This document shows, one piece after another, positions 44,257 to 45,049 of a DNA stretch of 64,000 nt. The translations under genes were made by a program, and so were the position numbers. Every line of letters starts with the position of its first letter. The first letter of the stretch is position 1. This stretch comes from Leucoraja ocellata (taxonomy: Eukaryota): NCBI GenBank assembly GCA_036785375.1, contig JAWMAR010000013.1, positions 9,362,001 to 9,426,000 on the forward strand, read 5' to 3'. The notes under the pieces were generated by a model. It searched no databases. It worked only from the letters and a program-made list of their open reading frames with translations, and was not told where the DNA came from.

Positions 44257-44389
44257 TTGTGTAGGAAGAACTGCAGATGTTGGTTTAAATCGAAGGTAGA
44301 CACAAAATGCTGGAGTAACTCAGCGGGACAGGCAGCATCTCTGGAGAGAAGGAATGGGTGACGTTTCGGGTCGAGACCCTTCTTCAGAC
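44257..44389 (-). mobile_element. ~130-bp PLE-derived element; best-preserved copy
   Basis: Flanked by TGATCT (44251-44256 and 44390-44395); contains the intact hammerhead core. Confidence 0.85.
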
Positions 44390-44390
44390 T
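44356..44390 (-). ncRNA. Candidate minimal type I hammerhead ribozyme motif (PLE-associated)
   Basis: Minus strand AGU-CUGAAGA-A-GGGU(CUCG)ACCC-GAAA-CGUC-ACCC: CUGANGA core, stem II hairpin, GAAA, palindromic ACGU mini stem III, and GUC cleavage triplet (predicted cut between 44360 and 44359). Stem I is only ~2 bp in this copy. Confidence 0.6.
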
Positions 44391-45049
44391 GATCTCAAGC
44401 GCTATAAGGCAATAACTCTACTGTTGGCATGGATAAGGTAGAGTTTCTCTACTCTGATAATATGAAGCGATTCAGCTGAGAGAAATTGCTTTAAAAAAGT
44501 TGAGTTGATAAGCAATAGAACGTGATTAAAATGAAAAAACCTAGCAAACTATTCTTCCTGACAGATAAAAACACAAATTTCAAATTTGAATTGGAAAAAC
44601 AGCTGACGTAGGAATATGGAGAAATTGCTAAAATGAGTTTGGAATGGCTGGATACTATATAACAAATGAAAGAATCGAACACTTTTGTCTACCTTCGATT
44701 TTCCAGCATCTGTAGTTCCTTCTTAAACAAATAATTGAATCTATTCAAAAGGGGATTATTCTCCTCTGCCGAGGTTCTGAGCAGTCACTGCCTCTGTGTT
44801 TCAAAAATTCACATTCAGGCTCCTCCATTGAGATTTAAATTTGTCCTGCTTGAGAATCCTTTTATATATGCTGGAACTAATTGTATACTATCAATTACAT
44901 TTGGATGATAAGAACCACAGTCACAGTTTATGGAACAATTCTAGTAATCTCTTGTACATTCAGTCCTCCAGGTAAAATTTAATAATTTCAACCTTGCTCT
45001 CTTGAGTGATGAACAGTGGCCTGTTTTTAATTATAGTAGTTAGAAGGTG

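Follow-up and report, generated by a model that had tools for sequence, protein, structure and literature searches.

A short hammerhead repeat of the skate Leucoraja ocellata, assigned to the pseudo-LTR end of Neptune-like Penelope elements

By sequence comparison, we show that a 95-130-base repeat, abundant in skate, is the ribozyme-bearing terminal pseudo-LTR (pLTR) segment of Neptune-like Penelope elements (PLEs). The unit is laid out as a minimal type I hammerhead, followed by about 60 nt and then by an optional tail of about 38 nt, and many of its copies begin at one and the same place, 31 nt upstream of the predicted scissile bond of the ribozyme. On present evidence the feature is real, and it is a variation on known PLE biology, not a new class of SINE.

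The repeat and its boundaries

Using positions 44257-44395 as a query, blastn finds 23 matches in the window (the whole 64-kb stretch analysed here, vertebrate DNA with 39% GC). An HMM built on 7 of the window copies finds 26 matches at E ≤ 0.01, and the reversed window, used as a control for the HMM, gives none at E ≤ 10. Counting both halves of the interrupted copy at 6431-6639 as one, these 26 matches correspond to 25 arms, about one per 2.6 kb. The earlier note had described one short repeat in many copies, and every locus it listed is recovered, several of them as head-to-head inverted pairs. The sequence of the unit is found where that note put it, at 44257-44395, with the correction that it occupies 44259-44390 of the minus strand; we number it from the A of AGT (nt 1 = 44390). 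Table 1 collects the features.

Table 1. Features of the window that belong to the repeat and to the Penelope elements linked to it (. = no single strand)
Feature	Position	Strand	Basis or remark
Reference short unit: AGT, minimal hammerhead, body, optional tail; PLE pLTR terminal segment	44259-44390	-	Sequence, blastn, HMM, read/contig mapping
Minimal type I hammerhead	44357-44390	-	Core CUGAAGA 44387-44381, bulged A, stem II 44379-44368, GAAA, palindromic ACGU 44364-44361
Initiator-like TCA(+1)GTCT, +1 A on the shared 5′ boundary (predicted transcription start)	44386-44392	-	Sequence
Optional ~38-nt tail between two 3′ ends (predicted internal RT start sites)	44259-44296	-	Loose ends 44297/44298, depth step, tail-less copies
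6-bp TSD in host tRNA-type SINE	44251-44256; second copy 44390-44395	.	Overlaps microhomology with PLE upstream sequence (compared with 158-170)
Second intact unit, 30098-29968	29956-30110	-	13-bp TSD 29956-29968 and 30098-30110
Outer unit (-, starts nt 1, internal deletion) split by tail-less unit of another subfamily (6488-6582, +)	6431-6639	.	
PLE RT fragment (6190-6113, -) head-to-head with short arm starting at unit nt 2 (6202-6272, +)	6113-6272	.	
Long copy	27015-27172	+	Upstream continuation pyrimidine-rich, matching the loose end that four runs have in common at 44392
Older full short unit, nt 1-132	3842-3971	+	
Diverged unit, start nt 3	27737-27836	+	
Tail-less unit, nt 1-91	52182-52272	-	G directly 5′ of AGT
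Head-to-head pair, arm starts nt 3 and nt ~30	35874-36067	.	One arm tailed
Head-to-head pair, arm starts nt 1 and nt 2	46002-46222	.	One arm tailed
Head-to-head pair, arm starts nt 19 and nt 29-32	47271-47426	.	One arm tailed
Palindromic pair centred on stem III palindrome AACGTT	60947-61121	.	One arm tailed; 13-bp TSD 60947-60959 / 61109-61121
5′-truncated pieces	29763-29832; 44676-44728; 52604-52677	-; +; +	Weak matches 30313, 39724, 42609, 53035
5′-truncated Neptune-like PLE: Cys linker remnant and GIY-YIG ORF end (stop near 268), 109-nt 3′ UTR, tail 88-157	88-765	-	
Upstream piece of same PLE ORF, inverted (5′ inversion)	768-971	+	tblastn

The earlier note had given GCAGTTC(C)TTCYTACACA as the 3′ end; the unit has two 3′ ends, at about nt 93 and nt 131, and the copies at 6488, 52272, 35963, and 46099 have no tail.

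Two of the 25 arms run on into the PLE 3′ UTR (88 to ~765, and 27044). Among the 23 arms without PLE 3′ UTR, 13 start at unit nt 1-3, 4 at nt 26-30, and 6 elsewhere; leaving out four weak matches, the starts at nt 1-3 are 11 of 19. If the 5′ ends were spread uniformly over nt 1-90, then 0.77 starts at nt 1-3 would be expected (p = 5e-14), and the observed count may be somewhat high, the reference beginning at nt 1 and the test covering two upstream types. The ends of the window arms are thus clustered and not uniformly spread, and the shared 5′ boundary near AGT-CTGAAGA that the earlier note had proposed stands, also in reads and contigs from outside the window. The copy that it had listed at 27041 is not bounded by the ribozyme and continues upstream.

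The target site duplications (TSDs) of 13 bp at 29956/30098 and of 6 bp at 44251/44390 had been given correctly, and the palindromic pair at 60947-61121 adds a further one of 13 bp. The chance of a TSD in random flank pairs is 0.024 for 6 bp or more and 0.0003 for 13 bp or more; most of the older copies have none. Three other copies of the host SINE line up colinearly with the empty site of the 44390 copy, gap-free at the junction. This junction lies in a 9/10 match to PLE upstream sequence, and given that microhomology the 44390 copy may be an ordinary truncation. The unit inserted at 6488-6582 has a 5-bp TSD, GTTGG, and one extra G, at 6487, between the TSD and AGT.

In all four inverted pairs the tail is on a single arm. 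The arms that start at nt 26-30 (35975, 47378, 60995, and 61000) are all in inverted pairs, and their starts are compatible with the scissile bond; inversion junctions may have been shaped by cleavage or by the ACGU palindrome.

The link to Penelope elements

The PLE origin proposed by the earlier note is borne out. The unit is the end of a pLTR, and both parts of a PLE ORF, a telomerase-like RT plus a GIY-YIG domain at the C-terminus, are linked to it in the window: the tail is attached to the GIY-YIG fragment at 88-765, and an RT fragment adjoins the arm at 6202. The earlier note had placed the GIY-YIG fragment at 88-160; the tail is there, at 88-157, but the hammerhead is gone, with unit nt 2-63 deleted through a short repeat. 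In this fragment, unit nt 1 is 109 nt past the stop, and the hammerhead would sit 113 nt past it. The tail of the 44390 unit agrees with that of the ORF-linked fragment at 0.89 (89%) over 61 nt. The PLE endonuclease fragment matches elasmobranch PLE proteins at 54-70%, with gene models from Rhinoraja (70%) and Leucoraja (69%) nearest and those from Mobula and Stegostoma next, in keeping with a skate host, and the related PLE loci carry RVT_1 and GIY-YIG.

The name Neptune rests on the CX2-5CxxC linker, which precedes the endonuclease in Neptune-type PLEs, according to the accessible parts of PMC8557442. The linker cysteines are invariant in our alignment A1, and the window ORF retains a decayed remnant. 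An optional tail of 30-40 nt, partial tandems, and inverted 5′-truncated arms, all expected of a PLE, are found in the window and in the outside reads and contigs, and the TSDs, inversions, and optional tail agree with the PLE-type mobilisation suggested earlier.

In relatives the segment is seen both upstream and downstream of the ORF. A unit-type segment is seen upstream of the ORF in loci L013, L021, and L036; the AUG of the L013 hammerhead starts a frame that leads into the PLE protein, and L021 has its hammerhead upstream of the ORF. Downstream, a minimal hammerhead is found 96-153 nt past the ORF match in 19 of 87 related loci, mostly in marine invertebrate host DNA, and a shark gene model (P0006) reads past the end of the PLE ORF into the same hammerhead peptide, SLMKGLRPKR. 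As a side observation, the skate unit 44259-44390 (-) is itself an open frame (SLKKGLDPKR...), and CUGAUGA copies such as that at 6639 would put an AUG in frame, as in L013 and in the anole element. We searched for proteins with an ORF that starts at the skate hammerhead and found just three chance read-throughs, and none of 52 long PLE proteins begins with a hammerhead-type peptide.

One invertebrate family also has two 3′ ends, at +78 to +101 and at least +133 to +140 from C3, and its short end is at a TTTTGTGT run, like that of the skate unit. Past the hammerhead, the skate segment bears a modest likeness to that of this family, with 4 of 12 comparisons reaching ≤14/1000 shuffles. Starts at the hammerhead edge are rare among the invertebrate loci (L083 at -3; L006 about 4 nt into the core), and the fixed 5′ boundary appears, on the sequences compared, as an observation within elasmobranchs. 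The exact 28-nt pattern does not occur in the viral and metagenome contigs searched, and a PLE protein scan of viral contigs gave 0 of 12 candidates. A more distant PLE group (a subset of L035-L080, for example L040:2919, L061:4178, and L064:3261) has its hammerhead 267-443 nt past the ORF and another stem III (GAAACCGU...). Loci L081-L087 are animal PLE loci within two bacterial MAG assemblies, that is, host contamination.

The hammerhead ribozyme

The unit starts as AGU-CUGAAGA-A-GGGU(CUCG)ACCC-GAAACGUC, with the predicted scissile bond between 44360 and 44359, after nt 31. The core, the bulge, stem II, and a palindromic stem III are all present, and their columns are invariant in alignment A3. 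By this core and by covariation with relatives, it is the minimal type I hammerhead that the earlier note had recognised. In a set of 14 hammerheads from relatives and 3 window copies, 95% of the cells are paired, with two-sided changes at 6 of 7 pairs (slid controls ≤44%); since the set was picked by the presence of the motif, the pairing of stem II is partly built in, and stem I lay outside the selection of the relatives. Over the 17 sequences, 94% of the cells of helix I pair and each of its 3 pairs shows two-sided changes; the 3 unpaired cells belong to the 3 skate copies. The covariation on which the earlier note had made its hammerhead depend is therefore present in the stems, but not at the third pair of helix I in skate.

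A helix I of 3-5 bp is not formed by the skate copies: stem I has 2 bp and its third pair is A.C, as weak as had been noted. The comparison with Rfam, to which the earlier note had looked, gives no hammerhead in the window or in a 191-nt region, and the MIR1507 and mir-9201 matches, which the palindrome produces, stay below threshold. Of the 12 window arms that span the core, 2 have it intact, and those two are the youngest copies. G12 and the stem III CpG are altered in about 17-18% of reads, as CpG decay would give. A dimer in the hammerhead fold scores -6.1 kcal/mol, whereas the best dimer fold reaches -21 to -25 kcal/mol, the pair probability of stem II in the monomer is 0.03, and the unit folds no better than its shuffles on either strand (z -0.40, -1.01). 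Ribozyme activity, if any, would by these folding models need protein.

Does the ribozyme make the boundary? The earlier note had offered, as one option, a truncation point defined by the ribozyme. Cleavage as the maker of the boundary is rejected, since the boundary and the scissile bond are 31 nt apart; 44359/44360 also gives no peak among the six strongest loose ends of any of four outside runs, nor has the depth a step there. The skate ribozyme would then be a weak, mostly decayed passenger that does not determine where insertions end here. A type III-like cut immediately 5′ of AGT (UGACAUC, upstream, with ACGUCA) was also considered and rejected: helix I would be 3 nt and loopless.

Copies outside the window

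Four runs from three organisms were mapped on 44200-44450 at 85%, giving 20,457 RNA reads for run X21 and, in contigs, at least 230,271 for X1, at least 319,978 for X8, and 32,216 for X15. The loose ends described here are the top six per run, with 906 others beyond, and the counts for X1 and X8 are lower bounds.

Within these top six, a first class has unrelated flanks behind 44390 (908 in X21, at least 938 in X1, at least 1432 in X8), with an agreement of 0.31-0.34. The same class behind 44389 has at least 845 in X1 and at least 1395 in X8, with flanks that are long in the contigs; in X15 the 44389/44390 class is absent among the top six. This sharp boundary at nt 1-2, in the reads and contigs of two organisms, shows that the short class exists beyond the window. 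The members of another class, mixed with chance matches, have in common an upstream sequence behind 44392 that is nearly identical to window 27015-27043, and this class occurs in each of the four runs (1196, at least 1154, at least 1888, and 265). Long copies that run into the PLE 3′ UTR are about as common as the short ones, within the same order. A third class ends before 44297/44298 in all four runs, with a depth in X21 that goes from 1513 to 5765, and this 44297 signal is partly inflated by divergent tail variants. Finally, joints connect 44388-44392 (nt 1-3) head-to-tail to 44297/44298 (nt ~93), 91-96 nt apart, and also to the opposite strand; in the contigs the head-to-tail joints are weakly supported relative to the classes of loose ends.

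The RNA data come from a single poly(A) run, made on a related organism, that was read to 6% and is blind to small circles; they show no pile-up of molecule starts, no strand bias, and no unit-length RNA. The RNA signal is flat, as expected for passive transcription within host RNAs.

The first loose letter deserves attention. In all five consensus rows of the first class it is a C on the plus strand, which is a G before AGT or GT, and there is no C among the other 145 letters. This letter is a plurality call that is forced to differ from the reference, so it is a lead of moderate weight. Just 2 of the nt-1 copies of the window have G at that place. The reads clipped at 44389/44390 are without even the C that is common to both known upstream types.

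Origin of the short copies

How could such stubs be made? To one reading we give about an even chance: the short copies would be dead-end cDNAs, begun at internal RT start sites in the upstream pLTR and extended as far as the cap at the 5′ end of the autonomous element's mRNA. What leads us to it is the combination of internal priming in PLEs, the initiator match, and the extra G as a mark of the cap. The match of TCA(+1)GTCT to the initiator consensus is shared by 1.25% of window sites and by 2 of 21 relatives. A DPE-like CGTCA at +28 to +32, matching its consensus at 4 of 5 positions, is given no weight. Because of the initiator match and the extra G, as from cap copying, the capped Pol II start of the PLE mRNA would lie at AGT.

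In PAc, the PLE of Anolis, RT starts internally at two RNA sites, the first 111-118 nt after the AUG of the hammerhead; the two sites flank an optional tail, RNA out to +172 is needed, and hammerhead cleavage is protein-assisted and dispensable for insertion (PMC11167929). The available parts of PMC2377424 have PLE mRNA starting in the upstream pLTR, and those of PMC3287187 ascribe an untemplated 5′ G in L1 and SVA to cap copying. If the anole PLE is a guide, the skate mRNA would hold the RT start sites twice, in the upstream and in the downstream pLTR. Priming in the downstream pLTR would give long 5′-truncated copies (such as 88 and 27044), and priming in the upstream pLTR would give a stub of 95 or 130 nt; template jumps would join stubs head-to-tail or inverted to other pieces. 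A tail on one arm of inverted pairs has been described for PLEs (accessible parts of PMC8557442 and PMC3846280). Lacking the downstream RNA required by the protein, stubs would seldom move again, and their ribozyme would be carried along and mostly decay. Against a start at AGT speaks, by analogy, that of D. virilis, which is about 120 nt upstream of the hammerhead and across an intron, as far as the available parts of PMC2377424 and PMC4209133 go. It also speaks against this reading that, among the skate sequences compared, no element was seen whose ORF follows the tail. A splice-acceptor origin (polypyrimidine and CAG/TCT; the D. virilis intron ends at helix I) was rejected as the main cause: TSDs abut the unit at 30098 and at 6488, and the loose ends share no exon.

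The same observations can be read otherwise. Some stubs could have an internal promoter and give transcripts that begin at AGT, cross the tail, and reach into the flank; with these copied again in trans by PLE protein, such stubs would be a self-propagating non-autonomous family. The very high abundance (at least 230,271 X1 and at least 319,978 X8 contigs), the sharp boundaries, the several subfamilies, the joints of 91-96 nt, and the nested copy at 6488 all fit, and non-autonomous PLE derivatives are known in Chlamydomonas and have been proposed for retrozymes (accessible parts of PMC8557442; bioRxiv 10.64898/2026.07.22.740005). We consider it unlikely: the tails are common to short and long copies (44390 and the ORF-linked fragment agree at 0.89 across 61 nt), the -2 and -1 bases of the initiator are gone in most stubs, PAc requires RNA to +172, past its first RT start, and unit-length RNA was not seen in the one poly(A) run. 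A Pol II-driven, Penelope-dependent short retroposon, with its promoter three bases before the hammerhead core and its 3′ ends at internal RT sites, spreading from solo loci, is in our view similarly doubtful. An independent SINE-like family, the suggestion of the earlier note, is conceivable, but short copies share tails with ORF-linked long copies, and one short arm adjoins an RT fragment head-to-head. A sense-strand Pol III head with A and B boxes, by which a SINE would be known, was not found, and ARAGORN and Rfam are negative.

The simplest account would be plain 5′ truncation with a strong stop, in which RT from the 3′ pLTR drops off at the 5′ edge of the hammerhead by reason of protein, structure, or CAG/TCAG microhomology. 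Most PLE copies are 5′-truncated, lone minimal hammerheads are taken as truncated PLEs in the available parts of PMC4209133, microhomology is seen at each of 44390, 30098, and 6639, the long copies have sequence in common with the short ones, and no unmapped promoter is required. We nevertheless rate it improbable, since a template hairpin should halt RT at its 3′ base, about nt 32-35, vs. the nt 1-2 seen, and since it leaves unexplained the extra G and the clipped reads that lack the C of both upstream types. Far less probable is a boundary made by the 3′ end of an antisense RNA template, possibly a Pol III transcript from A- and B-box-like motifs (44316, 44369). The two boxes, with one mismatch each and 53 nt apart, are on the antisense strand only, a pair that 3.9% of shuffles also give, and such a template has been proposed for head-to-head PLE insertions (accessible parts of PMC3846280). 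But the pair was found post hoc, both boxes are altered in common variants, there is no tRNA fold, ARAGORN and Rfam are negative, and PAc copies sense RNA in vitro. The least credible of all is a retrozyme, in which hammerhead cleavage would release monomers, possibly circular, that are then reverse transcribed. The two youngest copies retain an intact core, tandem joints exist, and 4 of the 10 arms outside the nt 1-3 class start at nt 26-30, which agrees with nt 32 once microhomology is allowed for (p about 0.006, post hoc). Yet the main boundary is at nt 1-2, the tandem joints run from nt 1 to nt ~93 and not between cleavage sites, stem I has 2 bp, and the core counts and folding energies given above are those of a weak ribozyme. 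None of the 25 window arms is in a tandem of units that each have a complete hammerhead, and what the earlier note had thought retrozyme-like are monomers, not units running from cleavage to cleavage.

Relation to known elements

Much of this is already in print, in the accessible parts of the papers concerned: PMC4209133 has lone minimal hammerheads as remnants of PLEs, PMC8557442 and PMC8969392 have tails, inverted arms, and non-autonomous derivatives of PLEs, PMC7229834 has retrozymes, and bioRxiv 10.64898/2026.07.22.740005 has their pLTR origin. Our literature search found no description of a class of fixed-start pLTR stubs or of the skate repeat; Repbase or Dfam may well hold one, and the bioRxiv supplement may do so too.

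The closest likeness in the ribozyme is to the Neptune-clade pLTRs with minimal hammerheads of PMC4209133, whose available parts describe the same CUGANGA-N-stem II-GAAACGUH core, bulge, G-C first pair, and palindromic stem III, in the same 3′ pLTR position and mostly as single dispersed motifs. The skate stem I has just 2 bp in comparison, and a short class whose 5′ boundary is fixed 3 nt ahead of the core is absent from those parts. PAc, a Poseidon element, has a hammerhead and then, about 90-130 nt on, two ends that flank an optional tail of 30-40 nt, with an AC-rich end; as in the skate unit, cleavage sets no insertion ends (PMC11167929). It is of another clade, though, its ORF begins at the hammerhead AUG whereas most skate copies have CUGAAGA, and solo insertions from the start to the RT site are absent from the main text of that paper.

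Non-LTR retrozymes, in the parts of PMC7229834 and bioRxiv 10.64898/2026.07.22.740005 available, are likewise short, non-coding, derived from PLE pLTRs, with a type I hammerhead and dispersed monomers, and those of pLTR origin include one chondrichthyan (bioRxiv 10.64898/2026.07.22.740005). They differ in having tandem active units and circular RNA; the skate repeat has mostly monomers and inverted pairs, a weak ribozyme, and a boundary away from the point of cleavage. In rotifers, the solo and inverted pLTRs of Penelope elements have the same head-to-head arms, junction palindromes, and one-arm tail, TSDs of 8-10 bp, and an Inr-like TCACT, but in the accessible parts of PMC3846280 they are rare and ascribed to recombination or deletion, and the skate units are abundant and TSD-bounded, with one fixed start. 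With tRNA-derived SINEs that have a LINE-like tail, the unit shares its size, its abundance, its TSDs, and a 3′ end in common with an autonomous element; it has, unlike them, no tRNA head, no sense A and B boxes, and no poly(A) or simple-repeat tail, and it is wholly derived from PLEs.

Internal RT initiation predicts a short cDNA by-product from the upstream pLTR to the cap. If the stubs are that by-product, the genome keeps a record, very many times over, of the PLE start and of the two RT start sites, which would account for minimal hammerheads occurring mostly as lone motifs and would offer a route from pLTR to retrozyme monomers. If instead the stubs propagate again, they would be a new PLE-dependent short element, a counterpart of SINEs for the third retroelement class, present in skates in hundreds of thousands of copies and with neither a Pol III head nor ribozyme-made ends.

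Other observations in the window

The copy at 60947-61121 is a near-perfect 78-nt palindrome and the source of the sub-threshold miRNA-family matches; fold-backs of this kind could yield hairpin small RNAs against PLEs. Beside the antisense boxes at 44316-44377 (+), positions 44309-44315 are able to pair with 44382-44388 in the manner of an acceptor stem that ends at the boundary. A tRNA-type SINE family, which we take to be HE1-like, is seen at 2811-2955, 27949-28100, 44120-44450, and 52317-52466, one copy of which hosts the 44390 unit. A weak PBC match (E 0.0036) at 10792-11100 (+) is presumably the first coding exon of a PBX-family homeobox gene (PBX-like), and most of the repeat copies downstream of it probably lie within its introns. 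Other pieces of mobile-element ORFs are at 25016-25616 (-), 4179-4610, 47502-47942, and 63252-63695, and we assume them to be Tc1/mariner-like transposase and CR1/L2-like RT.
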